IMG/VR virus record: IMGVR_UViG_3300031452_000005
Direction: 5' to 3' (one strand)
DNA length: 64,000 bases
Origin: a virus
Part shown: piece by piece, positions 3 through 49,255 of the stretch
Position numbering within the stretch: position 1 is the first letter of the stretch
Layout of the letters: the number at the start of each line of letters is the position of its first letter
Translations under genes and position numbers: made by a program
The notes under the pieces: model-generated
Databases searched by the model: none
What the model was told of the DNA's origin: nothing
Seen by the model: only the letters and a program-made list of their open reading frames with translations

Positions 3-98
3 GTCGAGATGCTCTACAAGACCATCGCCGAGCGTGACGCGGCCCTGGCGCATACACAGCAGATAGACACGGCAACCGATGCCCGGCAAGGGGACTAG
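3..98 (+). CDS. 3' end of an upstream late gene (partial)
   Basis: Open frame from window edge (VEMLYKTIAERDAALAHTQQ...GD*) ending TAG at 96-98, 2 nt before next ATG. Confidence 0.4.
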   Translation, partial: VEMLYKTIAERDAALAHTQQIDTATDARQGD

Positions 99-100
99 CG

Positions 101-379
101 ATGTTGGAGCCATGCGACCTGATTATCGAACCGGGGGCCGGGGCGCGTATTCAGGAAACATTCGCCAACGCCCGCTACATCGCCGACGTGACCACGCATA
201 CCGTCCTTGTGCGCGGCAATGATGTTGAGGTTGCCGTGACGCCGCGCATGGACGACAACGATTGTCATCTCGCCTATGATACCGCGCTGCATGTCCGTGA
301 CGCCGCCCTAGCAGCGACGCGCGCAACGAAAGCAGCGACAACAGCAGCGACAACAGCCGACGCATCGGTGGAGGGGTAG
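101..379 (+). CDS. hypothetical phage protein
   Basis: 92-aa ORF tightly packed between neighbours. Confidence 0.55.
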   Translation: MLEPCDLIIEPGAGARIQETFANARYIADVTTHTVLVRGNDVEVAVTPRMDDNDCHLAYDTALHVRDAALAATRATKAATTAATTADASVEG

Positions 380-385
380 CCTGCC

Positions 386-817
386 ATGGCCCTGACGTAC
401 TCCTACGACCCCACGGTCATGACCGGCCCCCAGGCCGTCGTCAACAAGATACGACGCCTCGCGGGCGATACTGACACGTTCGGCATGACGGCGGAGACAC
501 CGCGCTCCGAGCGCACGGCCATTTGGAGTGACCAGGACCTGCTGGGCTACCTCGCGGACACCGGCGACTCGTGGTACGCCGCCGCGCTCGCGCTGGAAGC
601 CCTGGCGCAACGCTATGCCGTCATGGCGGTGGGCGTCGATCTAGGCGGTGGCGGCAACATTAACTACGGTTCTGTGAGCGCCCTGCTGGCCCAACGCGCT
701 AAAGACCTCATCGACCGTTTGGAGAGCATGCCTGCGGAAGCAATTTCGGAAAATGACTGGAATGATTTCAGCCTTCGCCGGATTTACGCGAACTCCGCTT
801 TGCGTCAGTTGCCATAA
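386..817 (+). CDS. head-to-tail adaptor (SPP1 gp15-like connector)
   Basis: Motif IRRLAGDTD...SDQDLLGYL...AAALALEALAQRYA typical of adaptor proteins; first gene of the neck module. Confidence 0.7.
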   Translation: MALTYSYDPTVMTGPQAVVNKIRRLAGDTDTFGMTAETPRSERTAIWSDQDLLGYLADTGDSWYAAALALEALAQRYAVMAVGVDLGGGGNINYGSVSALLAQRAKDLIDRLESMPAEAISENDWNDFSLRRIYANSALRQLP

Positions 818-41079: not shown

Positions 41080-41328
41080 ATGGGCGATTTGCTCTATTTC
41101 ACGCCGACGACCATCGTCCCCGCGACCACGACACAGGCCGCCACGGTCGTGTCCGTCGCCGCGACGATGACCGCCGAGGGGATGCCTGTCTGGTCCATCG
41201 TCGCCGAACGCGACACGGCCCTGACCGCCGATGACCGCGTGGCGGTAGAGTACGCGCGCCGTCCCGGCAAACCGTGCCCCGTCGCGGGCGGCGACACCAT
41301 CCGCATCGCCGTCGCCTCCGTGGTCTGA
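41080..41328 (+). CDS. hypothetical protein
   Basis: 82-aa ORF packed 4 nt after upstream stop. Confidence 0.45.
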   Translation: MGDLLYFTPTTIVPATTTQAATVVSVAATMTAEGMPVWSIVAERDTALTADDRVAVEYARRPGKPCPVAGGDTIRIAVASVV

Positions 41329-41403: not shown

Positions 41404-44400
41404 ATGGCAGGGACCACGACGACCCCCACTTCGACGACGACCACGATACCGGCGTCCTATCTCGTCGGCGGCACGAATACGCCGAACGACGGACGGACGG
41501 TCCCGGCCGTCGTACTGATGGACCCGACGACCGGGTTGCCGCTGGTCGCCCAACCCGTCACCGTGGCGGCGTTGCCCCTACCCACCGGGGCGGCGCAGGA
41601 CCTCACGCTGACTGACGGCCAGCAGAAGGCACAGATCACGACGCTCCCCGCCGATGGGGCAACCTTCGCCACCCTCTCGGCGGCGTACATCACCCCCACG
41701 GTGGGTGGACCCCCTGATAGCGCCCCCCCCGCGAGCACCCTTGTCCTCCCCCTGGGCAACGGCCAATCCAGTTGGGACGCATCCATCGGCGGGACCATCG
41801 CACCCTCACTGGTCGCGCCCACCGCCGCCCCCGCGCCTGCGCTGTCCTATGGAACGGGCAATACGGTCGCGGCAGGCGTCTACGGGGTGCAGGTGTCCTA
41901 CATTAACAGCACCGGCGAAACGCTGCCCAGTCCCGCGCTGGCGCTGACGGTGCCCCCCCCCACTCCGGCGCCCGCGACGGCCCCGACCGTGGCCGCACCG
42001 ACGCCAGGCGGCCTGGTCGATGCCGGCGCGCATGTCTATGCCGTGACCGTCCTCACCCCCATTGGCGAGACCACGGCAGGCACGGTTTCCACCGCCGTGA
42101 CGGCCTACGCGTCCATCGCGGCCCCCGCGACGGCCCCGACCGTGGCCGCACCGACGCCAGGCGGCCTGGTCGATGCCGGCGCGCATGTCTATGCCGTGAC
42201 GCTGGTGAACCCTGCGGGCGAGACCACGGCAGGGACCGTCTCCACCGCCGTGACGGCCTACGCGTCCATCGCGGCCCCCACGACCGCCCCGACCGTGGGC
42301 GCGGCCATGCCAGGCGGCGCGGTGGACGCGGGCGCGCACGTCTATGCCGCCACGTTCACCAACCCCGCTGGTGAAACGACGCTCAGCACAGTCTCGGCCA
42401 CCGTGACGACGTTCGCCCCCCTCACGACGCCTGCCCCCGCGCCCACCGTGGCGACGGCCACGACGGGTGGCGCGGGGTTGGCGCCGGCCACCGCCTACAC
42501 CTACGCCATCACGGTTGAAAACAGCATCGGGGAAACCACCGTTGGCCCCGCCTCGACCAGTGTGACGACGGGGGCGGGCGCGACCAACTCCGTCACGCTC
42601 TCGGCCATTCCGACCGCGCCCGTGGGGAGCAGCGCGCGCAGGATTTACCGCGCCACGGCCGGCGGTCTCTACGGGTTGATCGCGATCATCGCCGACGACA
42701 CGACGACGTCCTACACCGACACGGGCGCCGTCCCGCAGGGGAACACGCCGCCAACCGTGAACACCACCAACGCACAGACTGTCCCCCTCGCGGCCCTGCC
42801 GACCGGCCCCGCCGGCACGACCGCGCGCAAACTGTACCGCTCGAAAGCGGGCACGACGACGCCCCTCTATCTGGTGGCAACCCTCGCCGATAATACGACC
42901 GTCACCTATACCGATACGATGGCGGACGCGGCGCTGGGCGTCGTGTCGCCCGTAGCGAACACGACCGAGGCGCAGACCGTGCCGCTGACGGCCATCCCGA
43001 CCGGCGCGGCTGGCACGACCGCGCGCAAGGTGTATCGGTCGAAAGCAGGCACCACCACACCGCTGTACCTGGTGGCGACCCTCACCGACAACACAACCGC
43101 TGTGTATACGGACGCCACGGCGGACGCCGCGCTGGGTGTCGTGTCGCCGGTCGCAAATACGACCGAGGCGCAGACGGTGGCGCTCACGGCCATCCCTAGC
43201 GGCCCCGCCGGCACAACCGGGCGCAAGCTGTACCGCTCCAAGGTCGGAACCACCACGCCCCTCTATCTGGTAGCGACCCTCGCCGATAATACGACCGTCA
43301 CCTATACCGACACGACGGCAGACGCCTCCTTGGGCGGGGCATCACCGTCCGTGAACAGTAGCGGCGCAAACACCCTCACCCTCCCCTCACCCCCGCCGTC
43401 GAGCAACGCGACGGGATGGTACGCCTATGTGACGCAGCCGGGGGGCGTGACCTACACGGGGCAGCAGGCGGCGGGATCACCCACCGCTATCGGGTCGCCG
43501 CTGACGTTGACGGCGCCCCCGACGACGACCGGCGCGGCGCCGCTCACGGTCGCGACCACGGTCGTGACGAGTGTGGCGTTCGACGGTACGCTCGACCCCA
43601 ACCCGGCGACAACGGCGTGGTTCGCCGTCCCTGCCATCCCGCTGGGTATGGCATCGGCTTCTCCGACGTTCACCCTGACCCCCGCGCCCCATGCGACGGC
43701 GACGGTGCATGGCGGCGCGGGTGGATACGCGCAGGTGCGCATCAGGGTGGTGACCTACAACGGAACGGACCAGGTGGCGGTCACGCTACGGGCGTCGGCG
43801 GCGTCGCCCATCGTGCGGACGGTCGCGGTCGCCACGACGCCGCCCGACCTCGCGGCCACGGCCGCGTTGGCGGCATCTCAGGCGTCCCCCACGTCCCCCA
43901 CAGCGGCTATTCCTAGCAGCGCGCTGGCCTTGCCGCTGGGGTCGGGACAGGCCAGTTGGGATGCTTACGTCGGCGGCGCCATCGCGCCCCCGATGGTCGC
44001 GCCCGTCGCCGCGCCCGCGCCTGCCGTGACCTACGTCGTCGGCGGCACGGTCGCGCCCGGTGTCTATGGGTTGGAAGTATCCTACATCAACACGACCGGT
44101 GAGACCACGCCCTCGCCTGCGACCTCCATCACGGTGCCCGCCCCCGTGCCCGCGCCGACGACGGCCCCGACCGTGGGCGCAGCGACAGCAAATGGCGCGG
44201 TGGACGCGGGCACGCACGTCTATGCGGCGACACTGGTTAACGCCATCGGCGAGACCACGGCAGGGACCGTCTCCACCGCCGCGACGGCCTACGCATCCAT
44301 CCCCGCGCCGACGACCGCCCCGACCGTGGGCGCGGCCATGCCAGGCGGCGCGGTGGACGCGGGCGCGCACGTCTATGCCGCCACGCTGGTCAATGCGGCG

Positions 44401-46458
44401 GGCGAAACGCCGAGTGGAACCGTCTCAGCCGCCGTGACGACCATCGCCGCGCTCGCCGCCACCGTGCCGCCCGTGCCGACGACCGCCACCACGGGCGGCA
44501 CGGTCGGGGCCGCGCTCGCCGCCCCCGCCGCCCCCGCGCCGACGACCGCCACCACGGGAGGCACGGTGGCGGCGGGCACCTATCCCGTGGCCGTCACCTA
44601 CGTCAACCCCGCCGGCGAAACGGTCGGCTCGGCTAACGGCAGCGTGACAACCACGGGCACGACCTCAACCATTACGGTCCCGGCCCCGGCGGCGAGCGGC
44701 AACGCCACCGCCTACTACGCCTACGTGGGCGCGGCGGGCGGCGCGGCGGGGTCCGGCACGCGGCAACAGGTGGCGGGATCGCCGACCGCGCTGGGGACCG
44801 CCTACACCTTGACCGCGCCTCCGACCACGACCGGCGCCGCTATCCCGACCACGACCACCGCGTATCTGCCCTATGCCATTGAGGTGACCTACGTCAACGC
44901 GGCGGGTGAAACGGTGGCATCGGCATCCGCCTCAATCACCCCGACCACGACCACCAGTACGATCACCGTGCCCGCGCCCGCCGCCAGCGGCAACGCCACG
45001 GGCTACTATGCCTATGTGACGCAGGCCAATGGCACGACGTATACGCGGCAACAGGCCGCCGGGAGTCCGACCGCGCTCGGCACGGCGTTCACGTTGACCG
45101 CGCCCCCGACCACGACGGGCGCGGCGCCACCAACCGTGAACACCACGAACACGCAGACGGTGGCGCTCACGGCCATTCCCACCGGCCCCGCCGCGACCAC
45201 CGCGCGCAAGGTGTATCGGTCGAAAGCAGGCACCACCACACCGCTGTACCTGGTGGCGACCCTCACCGACAACACAACCGCTGTGTACACCGATACGATG
45301 GCCGACGCGGCGCTGGGCGCGGCGTCACCTGCGGCGAACACGACCGAGGCGCAGACGGTGGCGCTCTCAGCCATCCCGACCGGCGCGGCTGGCACGACCG
45401 CGCGCAAGGTCTACCGCTCCAAAGCGGGGACCACCACACCCCTTTATCTGTTGGCGACGCTCGCCAACAACACGACCACGGTGTATACCGACGCGACGGC
45501 GGACGCCGCACTGGGTGTCGTGTCGCCGGCGCTCAACAGTAGCGGCGCGAACACCCTCACCCTTCCGTCACCCCCGCCGTCGAGCAACGCCACGGGCTAC
45601 TACGTGTACACCACGCAGCCGGGGGGCGTGACGTACACGCGACAGCAGGCGGCGGGCAGTCCCACTGCCATCGGCACGGCGTACGTGCTGGGGACCCCGC
45701 CGATCACGACGGGGGCAGGGCCGCTCGCGGCGGCGACGAGCGTGGCGACGAGCGTGGCCTTCGACGCCACGCTGGACCCCAACCCGCTGACGACGGCGTG
45801 GTTCCCGGTGAACCCGACGCAACTGGGCGGGCCGCAGGACGGCCCGGTGGCGGCGCTGACGCTCGCCGGGGCGCCGGTGGCGGTCCATGGGGGCGCGGCA
45901 GGCTACGCGCAGGTGCGGGTCCGCGTCCAAAGTTACAACGGCACGGACAGCCTCGCGACGATGCTGCGCGCGTCGGCGGCGTCGCCCTCGGTGATCAAGG
46001 CAACCATCAGCCCGCTCACCTCGGTCGATGTTGTCACGATTGGCAAGGTGTACACCCCAATTTACACGGAGTCCGCGCCCTCCGCGCGTCTCGCCACGGG
46101 CGGCACGACGGTCTACCAGCAGGTCTTCGTGCCCATCGCGTTCCCGGCGGGGTTCAACCCGACCGAACTGGGCCTCTCGGGCGTGCTCGGCCCGTTGACC
46201 TTTGCCACTAATGGGACGCCGGCGGGTCAGGTCCAACTCAACCTGGAGCACCAGGACGCCGGTGGGCGCTGGACGCAAATCTGGAACTCGGGGCCGATCA
46301 CCGCGAACGCGGGTGTCGCCAGCTACCCATCAACGAGTGTTGGCGCCGGTCTAACCAACAACGTCTGCTTCACCAACACGTTGCGGTGGAACTATGTGTT
46401 CACCGGCACATTCACCGCCGCATCCCTGACGGAGCAAGTGTCCCTCTGGGGCAAGTGA
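41404..46458 (+). CDS. giant repeat virion/accessory protein with nested FN3/Ig-like domains
   Basis: GGAGAG RBS; runs of A-halves (PTV..GG.V.AG.Y..T....GETT) followed by runs of B-halves (V.L.AIP.G....RK.YRS..Y.VATL.DNTT..YTD). Confidence 0.7.
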   Translation: MAGTTTTPTSTTTTIPASYLVGGTNTPNDGRTVPAVVLMDPTTGLPLVAQPVTVAALPLPTGAAQDLTLTDGQQKAQITTLPADGATFATLSAAYITPTVGGPPDSAPPASTLVLPLGNGQSSWDASIGGTIAPSLVAPTAAPAPALSYGTGNTVAAGVYGVQVSYINSTGETLPSPALALTVPPPTPAPATAPTVAAPTPGGLVDAGAHVYAVTVLTPIGETTAGTVSTAVTAYASIAAPATAPTVAAPTPGGLVDAGAHVYAVTLVNPAGETTAGTVSTAVTAYASIAAPTTAPTVGAAMPGGAVDAGAHVYAATFTNPAGETTLSTVSATVTTFAPLTTPAPAPTVATATTGGAGLAPATAYTYAITVENSIGETTVGPASTSVTTGAGATNSVTLSAIPTAPVGSSARRIYRATAGGLYGLIAIIADDTTTSYTDTGAVPQGNTPPTVNTTNAQTVPLAALPTGPAGTTARKLYRSKAGTTTPLYLVATLADNTTVTYTDTMADAALGVVSPVANTTEAQTVPLTAIPTGAAGTTARKVYRSKAGTTTPLYLVATLTDNTTAVYTDATADAALGVVSPVANTTEAQTVALTAIPSGPAGTTGRKLYRSKVGTTTPLYLVATLADNTTVTYTDTTADASLGGASPSVNSSGANTLTLPSPPPSSNATGWYAYVTQPGGVTYTGQQAAGSPTAIGSPLTLTAPPTTTGAAPLTVATTVVTSVAFDGTLDPNPATTAWFAVPAIPLGMASASPTFTLTPAPHATATVHGGAGGYAQVRIRVVTYNGTDQVAVTLRASAASPIVRTVAVATTPPDLAATAALAASQASPTSPTAAIPSSALALPLGSGQASWDAYVGGAIAPPMVAPVAAPAPAVTYVVGGTVAPGVYGLEVSYINTTGETTPSPATSITVPAPVPAPTTAPTVGAATANGAVDAGTHVYAATLVNAIGETTAGTVSTAATAYASIPAPTTAPTVGAAMPGGAVDAGAHVYAATLVNAAGETPSGTVSAAVTTIAALAATVPPVPTTATTGGTVGAALAAPAAPAPTTATTGGTVAAGTYPVAVTYVNPAGETVGSANGSVTTTGTTSTITVPAPAASGNATAYYAYVGAAGGAAGSGTRQQVAGSPTALGTAYTLTAPPTTTGAAIPTTTTAYLPYAIEVTYVNAAGETVASASASITPTTTTSTITVPAPAASGNATGYYAYVTQANGTTYTRQQAAGSPTALGTAFTLTAPPTTTGAAPPTVNTTNTQTVALTAIPTGPAATTARKVYRSKAGTTTPLYLVATLTDNTTAVYTDTMADAALGAASPAANTTEAQTVALSAIPTGAAGTTARKVYRSKAGTTTPLYLLATLANNTTTVYTDATADAALGVVSPALNSSGANTLTLPSPPPSSNATGYYVYTTQPGGVTYTRQQAAGSPTAIGTAYVLGTPPITTGAGPLAAATSVATSVAFDATLDPNPLTTAWFPVNPTQLGGPQDGPVAALTLAGAPVAVHGGAAGYAQVRVRVQSYNGTDSLATMLRASAASPSVIKATISPLTSVDVVTIGKVYTPIYTESAPSARLATGGTTVYQQVFVPIAFPAGFNPTELGLSGVLGPLTFATNGTPAGQVQLNLEHQDAGGRWTQIWNSGPITANAGVASYPSTSVGAGLTNNVCFTNTLRWNYVFTGTFTAASLTEQVSLWGK

Positions 46459-47137: not shown

Positions 47138-47749
47138 ATGGCAGAACACGGCTCGAAACTTATCAGGACGCTCCGCGAAACGGCTTTATATCCTCCACAT
47201 CCGCCTCGTAAAGCGACGGCTTTGTACAACAAAAGCCACCATCGCCTTGTTGTGGAGTTAGATAGACCTTGCCTTGTTTGCGGCGTGCGCAACAGCGACT
47301 TGCAAGACCCAGCGCGTCGCAATGACTCCAAGATCAATCCTTGGGGAGCGAAACAATTAGAGTCGCACCACAGAATTGTGGAGGATTCGCTAGCGAACGC
47401 TATTGATGTCGCCAAGTTCAACAAGCATATCGTGCCTGGTCTACTCAAACACACAGGCGACGAGGCAAAGTTCGGGCATGACTTTACGCAAGATGAGATG
47501 GTCGCATTTATACACGGCGATGAACTCAATTTATGGATACTTTGCGACGTGCATCATAGACATAGCGCAGTAGGTATTCATAGTATAACTTATAGTGTAT
47601 GGTCCGTGCAGCATCTTCTGCTTGACAACTACGACTTGACAGGGTACACGCCACCCACGCCACAAGAAGCCGCGCAGATTGCGGCGCTACCAACCACTCA
47701 GGGTGTGGCAGTGCCAGTGCCAACAGTCCCATCAGACGACATGCCCTAG
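47138..47749 (+). CDS. HNH-fold zinc-binding phage protein
   Basis: CLVC...ESHH...NLWILCDVHH...GIH pattern; GGGAGAG RBS. Confidence 0.6.
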   Translation: MAEHGSKLIRTLRETALYPPHPPRKATALYNKSHHRLVVELDRPCLVCGVRNSDLQDPARRNDSKINPWGAKQLESHHRIVEDSLANAIDVAKFNKHIVPGLLKHTGDEAKFGHDFTQDEMVAFIHGDELNLWILCDVHHRHSAVGIHSITYSVWSVQHLLLDNYDLTGYTPPTPQEAAQIAALPTTQGVAVPVPTVPSDDMP

Positions 47750-47760
47750 AGTACGCGACG

Positions 47761-49050
47761 CTATTTGACGCGTGCGTAAGTCTTGCCAGCAGCAATCGCG
47801 TATGAGGCCGAACGAGATAACCCGTAGCAAACCCCTACCTCATCCGCTTTCTCGCCATTTGCACAGCGACTTCTAAAGTCACGCACTTGATCCGCTGTCA
47901 ATTTTGCGATAGGTCGTCTATCGCTTTCTCTTGCAATACCCATGTTTTCACAAGGGGGCAAGTGGTTCCATGTTTTACTAGTAACAATTAGGCGGATATT
48001 GTTGCGATGAACGTTATACTGGCTAGCAAGCGATTCAGTTGACGCCCCTGCATCATATTCCGTCCTAATGCTAACCACCATCGCATCGGTTAATTTGGTG
48101 CTACCCCGCCGCAGAGCCGTACACGGTGGCTCGGCTACATGCTGCCACCATTCACCTGATATAGCTTTCTTAACGGTTCCTAAACTTACGCCGTAAAGAA
48201 TCGCCATTTCTGCTTTGCGAGTACCATTTCGATAAGCGGTTCGCATACTGCCGACTATTTCTTCAGTTAGCACCGCGTTGCCGTGGTCAACGCCTCGTGC
48301 TCGTTTGAGACTAGCACGTCCCCGACTGTACATGTCTTGGACATTATCCGCGTGCGTCCCACCGATAAGATGGTCAGGTCTGACGCATAGACCATTGTCG
48401 CATGTGTGCCGCGCAAGAATGTCAGGGGTTAAGGTTTTTACTTTCAAGAGCAGCGAAAAACGCTGGGCATATATCTGCCTTTTACGCCCATTATGCGTGA
48501 CGTGAAAAAGGCCGTAACGTCCCTCCGCAGTGCCGCCTTTCCATAGCCAACACCCCTCACTCTTTTCAACGTAAGACCAGAAGCGCGCTATTGTCTGCTC
48601 CAAGCTATACACCTTGTCTAGGCAAAGCAGTGAGTCAGATGGTTGGTGCATACGTATTTGGCCATTACCAGCGGCAATGGCAATTCGATTGGTCAGTTTA
48701 CAACCTTGTTCATGGTGGGCAATGATCTGTAAATGCTCGCGCTCAAACGATAAGGCAGCGGTGGTTTCTTCTAGAATCCGCACTCCTGGCAGCGCCCCAA
48801 TAGCAAGGACTTCTCCGAGCCATCGGTTTTTAGGCGTATTACGCTTTAATGAGCTGCGCCCTACGTGAGACCTTAGACGGGAATCGGGATTATTGGCGCG
48901 CCCGATATAGCGCACCTCATCGGTGCGAGGGTCGGTAAGTGCATAGATATAGTAGACATCGCTAGTTCGCACTCGTTGACGCGCGCGCTGCTGACGGGGT
49001 AGCAAAGATACAGGAGGAAATGCTAATTGGGTAGACTGAGAGTAAGCCAT
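47761..49050 (-). CDS. hybrid GIY-YIG + HNH endonuclease with C-terminal HTH repeats
   Basis: YYIYALTD...RYIGR...RLRSH...FERE...LTN then CWLW..RYG...RHTCDNGLCVRPDHLIGGTHADN then three (K/V)LT.. HTH repeats. Confidence 0.85.
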   Translation of the reverse strand: MAYSQSTQLAFPPVSLLPRQQRARQRVRTSDVYYIYALTDPRTDEVRYIGRANNPDSRLRSHVGRSSLKRNTPKNRWLGEVLAIGALPGVRILEETTAALSFEREHLQIIAHHEQGCKLTNRIAIAAGNGQIRMHQPSDSLLCLDKVYSLEQTIARFWSYVEKSEGCWLWKGGTAEGRYGLFHVTHNGRKRQIYAQRFSLLLKVKTLTPDILARHTCDNGLCVRPDHLIGGTHADNVQDMYSRGRASLKRARGVDHGNAVLTEEIVGSMRTAYRNGTRKAEMAILYGVSLGTVKKAISGEWWQHVAEPPCTALRRGSTKLTDAMVVSIRTEYDAGASTESLASQYNVHRNNIRLIVTSKTWNHLPPCENMGIARESDRRPIAKLTADQVRDFRSRCANGEKADEVGVCYGLSRSASYAIAAGKTYARVK

Positions 49051-49255
49051 AGCGGAACTCAACCTTTCGCTTGTGGTCTAGGCGCTGTCTGGAACTTCGA
49101 CCTTCCGGCCAGCGCCGCTTGTATTTATACGCCCTCGCGTCGTATCCATTGGGGCATTTGTCCCGCTTGCACGGGGTTTATAGCATCCCGCTTAGACCAA
49201 CCCGCCCCGAAAAACGGCGGGTAGAGGAATCGAACCTCTGTCTCAAGGGCCACCC
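49051..49255 (-). ncRNA. structured 5' leader RNA of the hybrid endonuclease, with tRNA-like T-arm
   Basis: AGAGG-TTCGATT-CCTCT stacked on 7-bp ACCCGCC/GGCGGGT; long-range TGGTCTA/TAGACCA; GCAA, GCGA, GGAA loops; hairpin over RBS. Confidence 0.5.

Follow-up and report, generated by a model that had tools for sequence, protein, structure and literature searches.

Si3, an insertion in the beta' subunit (RpoC2) of cyanobacterial RNA polymerase, has been solved for T. elongatus: it holds eight sandwich-barrel hybrid motif (SBHM) domains, four of them discontinuous, and is 150 Å long (PMC10895346). In Prochlorococcus RpoC2 a six-level nest has been reported, and most of the domain insertions surveyed were found to be single-level (PMC13114784). 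Here we describe P0001, the product of a single open reading frame (ORF) in a viral DNA of 64,000 nucleotides (IMG/VR virus record IMGVR_UViG_3300031452_000005; this whole stretch is called the window below). P0001, encoded on the plus strand at 41404-46458 (1,684 codons, one per amino acid), appears to be wired like Si3: one small beta domain recurs, copy within copy, several of the copies are built from distant segments, and together they form an elongated body from which the chain returns to its start. Si3 differs from P0001 in its fold, which is SBHM and not an immunoglobulin-like (Ig-like) sandwich, in its host, the trigger loop of a cellular enzyme, and in its function. The P0001 family, unlike Si3, comprises phage structural proteins, varies in depth from 1 to 8 within one family, forks, and has the nest twice in one chain. 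We consider the nested, domain-in-domain architecture well supported computationally and very probably correct, and we regard as likely the explanation of the protein as a whole, namely that P0001 is a tail-appendage protein with two nested Ig-like stalks and variable tips.

Other known systems resemble parts of this arrangement. The linear stalks of tandem FN3 or Ig-like domains in phage tail fibres and bacterial fibrillar adhesins hold a binding part off the surface. They share with P0001 the type of building block, for which the FN3 alignment is weak, and the presumed job; unlike P0001, they are strung head to tail and carry the tip at one end of the chain, whereas the tip of P0001 lies in mid-sequence and every level is connected by two strands. 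In the split Ig-like domains of the RTX adhesins MpIBP and FrhA, and in the A/P-repeat stalk of streptococcal antigen I/II, segments flank an inserted distal binding region, so that the tip is central in the sequence. In contrast to P0001, these proteins have one level of splitting, or pair helix with polyproline, and show no recursion of like domains. Among the two best whole-domain fold matches to the tip of P0001 are the IG domains of PhicrAss001 gp44 (IG1/IG2, PDB 7qok/7qol), of which IG1 is inserted between propeller blades (PMC10172136); this insertion into a beta-propeller has one level and, unlike P0001, is not recursive. The top structural match is a domain of the SPO1 capsid (9vel_A 281-399), which differs from P0001 in belonging to a capsid protein and in being a single contiguous domain. 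In the literature on nested, matryoshka or Russian-doll Ig/FN3 domains in phage tails we found no description of such towers. An earlier note on this DNA had proposed the architecture as new for a virion protein, and to that extent the proposal stands, but recursive nesting itself has a precedent in Si3.

Motif scans showed that P0001 carries ten A halves (about 35-50 residues each, a long strand followed by a GET turn) and ten B halves (about 55-65 residues) in balanced-parenthesis order. Six of the B halves combine an R-[RK]-x-Y-R strand with a Y-T-D strand, and the other four belong to an 'NATG-x-Y' variant, which we call B0. The GET hairpins of the A halves lie at residues 171, 221, 272, 323 and 376 in unit 1 and at 899, 949, 1000, 1071 and 1168 in unit 2. 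The B halves of unit 1 are found at residues 412, 475, 541 and 607 (R-x-Y-R type) and 668 (NATG type), and those of unit 2 at 1100, 1197 and 1395 (NATG type) and 1268 and 1334 (RKVYR type). Each unit is bracketed by two base motifs, LPLG.GQ.SWDA (residues 115 and 843) and SVAFD.TLDPNP (residues 723 and 1450). Unit 1 thus reads A0 A1 A2 A3 A4 B4 B3 B2 B1 B0, one of the 252 ways in which five A and five B halves can be arranged, and unit 2 reads A0 A1 A2 A3 B0' A4 B0'' B2 B1 B0, which is a valid balanced string. In both units, the outer A0 type (V-S-Y-I-N-x-T-G-E-T) accompanies the outer B0 type. These results bear out what the earlier note had read from the letters: a run of A halves followed by a run of B halves in parenthesis balance, the AAAAABBBBB layout of unit 1 between its base motifs, and outer halves and base motifs that match by type in both units. 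The DNA identities were less obliging. A1 and A2 of unit 1, described as near-identical, proved to be 87% identical; their partners B1 and B2 were 72% identical, and these unequal values leave unsupported the idea that length changes by a single event of paired duplication. Identities between the two units did not separate nested from parallel pairing.

A word-seeded search returned 77 relatives, nearly all metagenomic, which with P0001 formed a first set of 78 proteins; A and B copies were called in them with hidden Markov models (HMMs) built from P0001's own copies. The numbers of A and B halves differed by no more than one in 78/78 proteins (r = 0.95), at depths of 1-8, and exact balanced strings were found in 52-55 of the 78. 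In most of the off-by-one cases a gap of 55-80 residues lay exactly in the centre, where a divergent innermost half had been missed by the HMM; looser thresholds recovered some divergent tips, at the cost of false matches. Plain four- or five-level towers were the commonest, and some relatives reached seven levels. P0003 (1,593 residues) has a tower eight deep plus a side branch, and P0061 (1,698 residues) and P0070 (1,460 residues) have one outer split pair around six to eight tandem contiguous domains (up to eight in P0061). These forked and wide forms indicate that the nesting 'grammar' permits wide forks besides depth. In the tandem-array relatives the link from A to B is about 1-10 residues, shorter than the link of about 15 residues from B to A.

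An exhaustive profile search of 1.84 billion representatives extended the family to 4,628 proteins at E ≤1e-3 (464 at E ≤1e-30). We found exact balanced strings, with depths up to 8, in 85 of 133 further best-matching representatives at 50% identity, and the bigger imbalances among the 133 were mostly N-terminally truncated ORFs (first match at residue 1-22, start Met absent) or proteins in which long stretches went undetected. In all, about 140 proteins show balanced strings, forked ones included. Unequal numbers of A and B halves in homologues had been named beforehand as one result that would speak against nesting; across relatives of differing copy number the halves were, as a rule, balanced last in, first out, with the near-identical copy P0002 (see below) as a possible true exception. 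The base and the N- and C-terminal parts of P0001 are common only to P0002, and the tower can thus be viewed as a module within different host proteins. One further relative, P0124 (2,974 residues), gave 14 B-type and 5 A-type matches in irregular order; its B modules may be paired with an A type outside the reach of the HMM, or B may be used alone.

Homology between split and contiguous domains provided a second line of evidence. P0066, an otherwise unrelated protein of 970 residues, contains one contiguous A+B0 domain (residues 585-710), which aligns end to end with P0001 residues 1157-1243 (72% identity) and 1060-1148 (64%). The N-half of this domain alone matches the outer A0 segments of P0001 (residues 154-173 and 881-914), and its C-half alone matches the outer B0 segments (residues 642-713 and 1361-1444). 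These matches indicate that the outer A0 and B0, about 470 residues apart, are the halves of a domain that is contiguous elsewhere. They bear as well on the centre of unit 2, which had been read as one split domain around another, X[Y]X. The end-to-end match of P0066 to each central domain, a matter of homology and not of fold, speaks against that arrangement, and the centre most likely consists of two contiguous domains in tandem, (A3 B0')(A4 B0''). Of the two five-level towers that the earlier note had described, unit 1 therefore retains its five levels, but unit 2 would have five domains at a depth of four, with a forked tip.

We asked how A and B halves covary in 55 balanced relatives, in which pairing by the parenthesis rule gave 232 pairs aligned to the HMMs. 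For the nested pairing, the ten highest values of mutual information after average product correction (APC-MI) summed to 1.63. In contrast, the same sum was 0.96 and 1.02 when the pairing was shifted by +1 and -1 level and 0.82 when it was parallel, and 0/200 within-protein shuffles attained 1.63 (0.76 ± 0.05, maximum 0.94). The strongest covarying pairs joined A columns 11, 12, 15 and 17 with B columns 26, 25, 22 and 20, which lie on one antidiagonal (i+j = 37); mean APC-MI along it was 0.067 for the nested pairing versus -0.009, -0.009 and 0.002 for the controls. Such an antidiagonal is the signature of an antiparallel beta-ladder, here predicted to join, within each level, an A strand of consensus H-D-Y-A-V-T-F-V to a B strand of consensus A-R-K-L-Y-R-T. 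Covariation that is specific to the nested pairing thus points to contact between the paired halves.

Conservation followed the same levels. Among 17 five-level relatives, mean pairwise identity was 0.63 (A) and 0.65 (B) at the outer level 0, 0.58 and 0.55 at level 1, 0.57 and 0.52 at level 2, 0.42 and 0.42 at level 3, and 0.30 and 0.25 at level 4, the tip. Identity hence drops symmetrically from the outer level to the tip, and level-matched rates are what the halves of a single domain should show. Extra inserts of 110-150 residues occur at times in the fast-evolving tip. Because it is both variable and insert-bearing, the tip is the obvious candidate for the ligand-binding end, and it is probably this variable end that binds the host.

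The predicted structure of unit 1 was consistent with these results. AlphaFold2 modelled residues 100-840 from a 19-row alignment with a mean predicted local distance difference test (pLDDT) of 72.9 (about 85-96 in the tower, below 50 in the base regions), and we read the nesting from the ranges aligned by VIA-align. Single FN3/Ig domains of about 70 residues align across model positions 136..489, which correspond to A2+B2, and 44..595, which correspond to A0+B0. Since single domains align across both halves, the model holds discontinuous sandwiches that enclose the inner levels: in it, a domain made of two distant segments surrounds another complete domain, and the halves are not independent domains. 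Chains of tandem FN3 domains align over neighbouring levels (for example 3lpw_B, 111 residues), which hints weakly that the stalk may be an extended rod. Unit 2 (residues 828-1684) was modelled on an alignment labelled A2 (here, like A3 and A4 in the next sentence, the label of an alignment and not of a half), and its outer levels reached a pLDDT above 90. Two other alignments of unit 2 were set aside, a fragment-based one (A3) that placed B-run fragments on the A-run, and one to four-level homologues (A4), unused for folding, whose B side was one level out of register. Balance in the relatives, split and contiguous homology, A-B covariation and the AlphaFold2 model are four independent lines, and together they support the proposal that every Ig/FN3-like module is inserted into a loop of its predecessor.

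The type of module could be specified in part. The contiguous tip of unit 1 (model 239-356, pLDDT about 65-91) matched the SPO1 capsid protein with Z 10.9 (105 residues, root-mean-square deviation [rmsd] 2.4 Å, 21% identity), IG1 of the PhicrAss001 muzzle protein (7qok_A 162-291) with Z 9.6 (110 residues, rmsd 2.6 Å, 19% identity, homology unproven), and a domain of alpha-latrotoxin with Z 8.2. FN3 chains aligned to the nested pairs at Z 3-4 over about 65-70 residues, and Ig-like domains described as having a different strand order aligned to the tip at Z 9.6. P0001 had no fn3 (PF00041) match even at E up to 1, and its sole match in a sequence search of the PDB was a weak one to FN3con strands (E 0.59). 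The label FN3/Ig-like given in the earlier note thus holds as to the Ig-like fold, but Pfam fn3 does not match and the best matches have a non-canonical strand order. From the motifs and the covarying strand pair we infer a permuted order, F-G first and then B-C-C'-E; the sandwich would be a strand-order variant with both ends together, suited to insertion into a loop, and the placement of IG1 between propeller blades agrees with this reading. The model of the C-terminal domain, which is of low confidence, matches VP2 of infectious bursal disease virus (IBDV), carbohydrate-binding modules (CBMs) and the tip proteins of lambda and T1 at Z ≤8.3, and a protein-atlas look-up gave scores below 0.9. 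These 140 residues may form a jelly-roll or CBM-type sandwich, which we treat as only a lead.

We propose the following architecture. P0001 would consist of an N-terminal part of about 105 residues, two tandem units and a C-terminal beta-sandwich of about 140 residues, and from the base region of each unit a stalk of recursively nested Ig-like beta-sandwiches would project. The N-terminal half of each domain would be a hairpin with the GET turn and a long strand resembling FN3 strand F; of the four strands in the C-terminal half, the one with R-K-x-Y-R would be similar to FN3 strand C. Both halves would pack as one sandwich, with the next domain inserted between them. The chain would ascend through all the A halves, make the tip (one domain in unit 1, two in tandem in unit 2) and return through the B halves in reverse order, which would leave both ends of the stalk at the base and place the coding sequence of the tip in mid-unit. 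With two stalks and a C-terminal sandwich, the protein is expected to be branched, not linear. The stalk may be extended, perhaps 15-20 nm for five domains, and would keep its variable, host-binding tip at a distance from the virion. Gain and loss of half-domains would tune how far the stalk reaches (relatives have depths of 1-8) and its valency (forked tips). As depth varies yet counts stay balanced, A and B halves must come and go in a coordinated fashion over time.

Several points weigh against this proposal. The nested structure is a prediction; the alignments behind both models contained only 19-20 sequences, and the predicted template modelling scores of 0.49 and 0.43 were lowered by poorly modelled base and terminal parts. 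The two central domains of unit 2 were poorly predicted (pLDDT 35-78), the alignment being wrong there, and the base and C-terminus of that model were mostly below 50. No Pfam or PHROG match was found for the tower. When the A-run (residues 188-348) and the B-run (residues 444-652) were predicted as two chains, we obtained a score of 0.02, moderate pLDDT for each and no interface, an outcome that the tool counts neither way. P0002 suggests that an unbalanced form may exist. Gene context makes a place in the virion plausible, and the binding function is a prediction. P0001 and its 705-residue upstream neighbour had zero tblastn matches among 50,697 deposited phage records, and thus no cultured-phage relative there; for this reason we read the source as an uncultured, very divergent tailed phage or prophage.

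Finally, covariation fits strand pairing within a chain and between chains alike. The A-run of one chain might zip, level by level, onto the B-run of another in a domain-swapped dimer or trimer of extended chains; the balance of counts would fit this equally well, and phage fibres are usually oligomers. We judge such pairing unlikely, as in the AlphaFold2 monomer each domain is completed by a single chain at high pLDDT, and the innermost A and B lie about 1-10 residues apart in a compact contiguous domain. With so short a link the chain must reverse at the tip, which brings the flanking halves together. It is also conceivable that A-run and B-run are independent structures, stacked hairpins followed by four-stranded modules, with equal counts due to some other co-expansion and a model that is an AlphaFold artefact. 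The tower without a Pfam domain, the shallow alignments and the language-model fold of the separated runs would agree with that. We nevertheless give this explanation very little credence: the level-specific antiparallel covariation is gone in the shifted and parallel controls, contiguous A+B domains stand alone in other proteins and correspond, half by half, to the split outer pair, conservation agrees between the two halves of a level, and balanced strings, forked ones among them, recur in the relatives.

The copy number of one half differs between P0001 and P0002, a 97% identical metagenomic copy (JGI sample 3300050280) in which unit 1 has 4 A and 5 B halves. In the region compared, around the A1/A2 repeats (contig L002, 3547-3800, against window positions 42004-42261), the DNA of P0002 is identical but for one absent A copy of 153 bp, and the junction falls within sequence that A1 and A2 share letter for letter; at least one assembly or phage population therefore differs in copy number. 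The 4A:5B form is either a natural unbalanced intermediate, a half-domain deletion by recombination, or an assembly collapse. Although a difference of exactly one copy with such a junction would suit an artefact in the assembly of metagenomic DNA that is repetitive and GC-rich here, the idea that the whole repeat pattern arose in this way can practically be dismissed, as the ORF is intact over 5 kb, the repeat copies are just 41-87% identical in DNA, and the same architecture occurs in hundreds of independent contigs from several sources.

The tower gene closes a block of big plus-strand genes, putatively tail or structural ones, as its last large member. The guanine-plus-cytosine (GC) fraction peaks across the ORF (0.71-0.73) and is 0.59 immediately downstream. 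Upstream, the 1,195-residue SLT protein is probably a tape measure carrying a cell-wall-cutting domain, and the 705-residue neighbour has a weak PHROG match to 'minor tail protein'. The position of the GH5 gene amid the putative tail or structural genes suggests that its product is a glycan depolymerase carried on the virion. The 82-residue ORF just 5' of the tower gene might encode a fibre chaperone or adaptor. Among other members of the family, P0016 is encoded on a phage-like contig, where its gene adjoins a large 722-residue gene and lies downstream of a weak Tail_completion_gp17 match. In fold, the best matches among viruses are to proteins of uncultured Caudovirales, the UniProt/BFVD members being titled 'uncharacterized protein [uncultured Caudovirales phage]'. 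P0001 is likely to be a large structural protein, most probably a tail appendage, of an uncultured high-GC tailed phage, with its location in the virion predicted from gene context and its binding role a prediction as well. Beyond the structural block, the 433-residue HNH endonuclease additionally matches helix-turn-helix (HTH) DNA-binding domains; at the border between that block and the HNH genes the GC fraction changes from about 0.72 to 0.59.

Table 1. Features of P0001 and of neighbouring genes, with positions in the window (P0001 residues in the second column).
Feature	Residues	Position	Strand	Basis and remarks
SLT protein, 1,195 aa		9847-13434	+	Upstream of P0001; SLT lytic transglycosylase domain at the C-terminus; weak PHROG matches (tape measure, lytic tail)
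GH5 protein, 1,603 aa		34767-39578	+	Two ORFs upstream of P0001; GH5 cellulase domain at aa 188-452 of this protein, E 4e-27
82-aa ORF		41080-41328	+	Just 5' of the tower gene; position kept in related contig L002 (2677-2925)
N-terminal region	1-105	41404-41718	+	Only in P0001 and P0002; presumed attachment part
Unit 1 base-N	106-150	41719-41853	+	LPLG.GQ.SWDA motif; modelled pLDDT <50
Unit 1 A0	151-184	41854-41955	+	Partner B0 43351-43530; Ig-like domains align over model 44..595
Unit 1 A1	201-235	42004-42108	+	Partner B1 43162-43323
Unit 1 A2	252-286	42157-42261	+	Partner B2 42964-43125; FN3 domains align over model 136..489
Unit 1 A3	303-337	42310-42414	+	Partner B3 42766-42927
Unit 1 tip domain, contiguous A4+B4	355-442	42466-42729	+	Z 10.9 to 9vel_A 281-399, Z 9.6 to 7qok_A 162-291
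Unit 1 B3	455-508	42766-42927	+	Motif scan, model
Unit 1 B2	521-574	42964-43125	+	Motif scan, model alignment
Unit 1 B1	587-640	43162-43323	+	Motif scan, model
Unit 1 B0, NATG type	650-709	43351-43530	+	Motif scan, model alignment, P0066 homology
Unit 1 base-C	715-835	43546-43908	+	SVAFD and HGGAGGYAQVR motifs; modelled pLDDT <50
Unit 2 base-N	836-878	43909-44037	+	Motif
Unit 2 A0, A1, A2	879-1014	44038-44445	+	Partners B0, B1, B2 in 45145-45711; A1/A2 pLDDT mostly 73-95
Unit 2 tip domain 1, contiguous A3+B0'	1051-1143	44554-44832	+	64% identity to contiguous P0066 domain
Unit 2 tip domain 2, contiguous A4+B0''	1148-1238	44845-45117	+	72% identity to contiguous P0066 domain
Unit 2 B2, B1, B0	1248-1436	45145-45711	+	Motif scan, model
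Unit 2 base-C	1442-1540	45727-46023	+	Motif; low-confidence model
C-terminal domain	1545-1684	46036-46455	+	Possible jelly-roll or CBM-type beta-sandwich; low-confidence model (pLDDT 40-70, Z ≤8.3)
HNH endonuclease genes		47761-49062; 47138-47749	-; +	Directly 3' of the structural block

Si3 has been the main documented case of deep recursion among like domains, and the P0001 family adds a second, unrelated fold with the same wiring. This wiring is common in uncultured phages, with thousands of 50%-identity representatives, depths of 1-8 and forked forms. From it one would expect appendages that are branched or hairpin-like and have their variable, probably host-binding part encoded in mid-gene, which bears on the annotation of receptor-binding proteins and on the swapping of their binding parts. 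The family further offers a graded natural series for the folding of discontinuous domains, for their response to force and for the upkeep of balanced numbers of half-domains. We tentatively suggest, as a possibility that we hold to be less than even, that a very large family of phage structural proteins builds an evolvable stalk from a single Ig-like domain by a recursive, parenthesis-like grammar. In such a grammar the reach would follow from depth, the number of host-binding tips from forks, and the anchoring of both chain ends from the two-stranded wiring; half-domains would be gained and lost singly, with unbalanced intermediates such as the 4A:5B form of P0002 tolerated. If true, this would amount to a design principle of general use in receptor-binding proteins, hitherto undescribed, and nature would have supplied a test bed for discontinuous folding.

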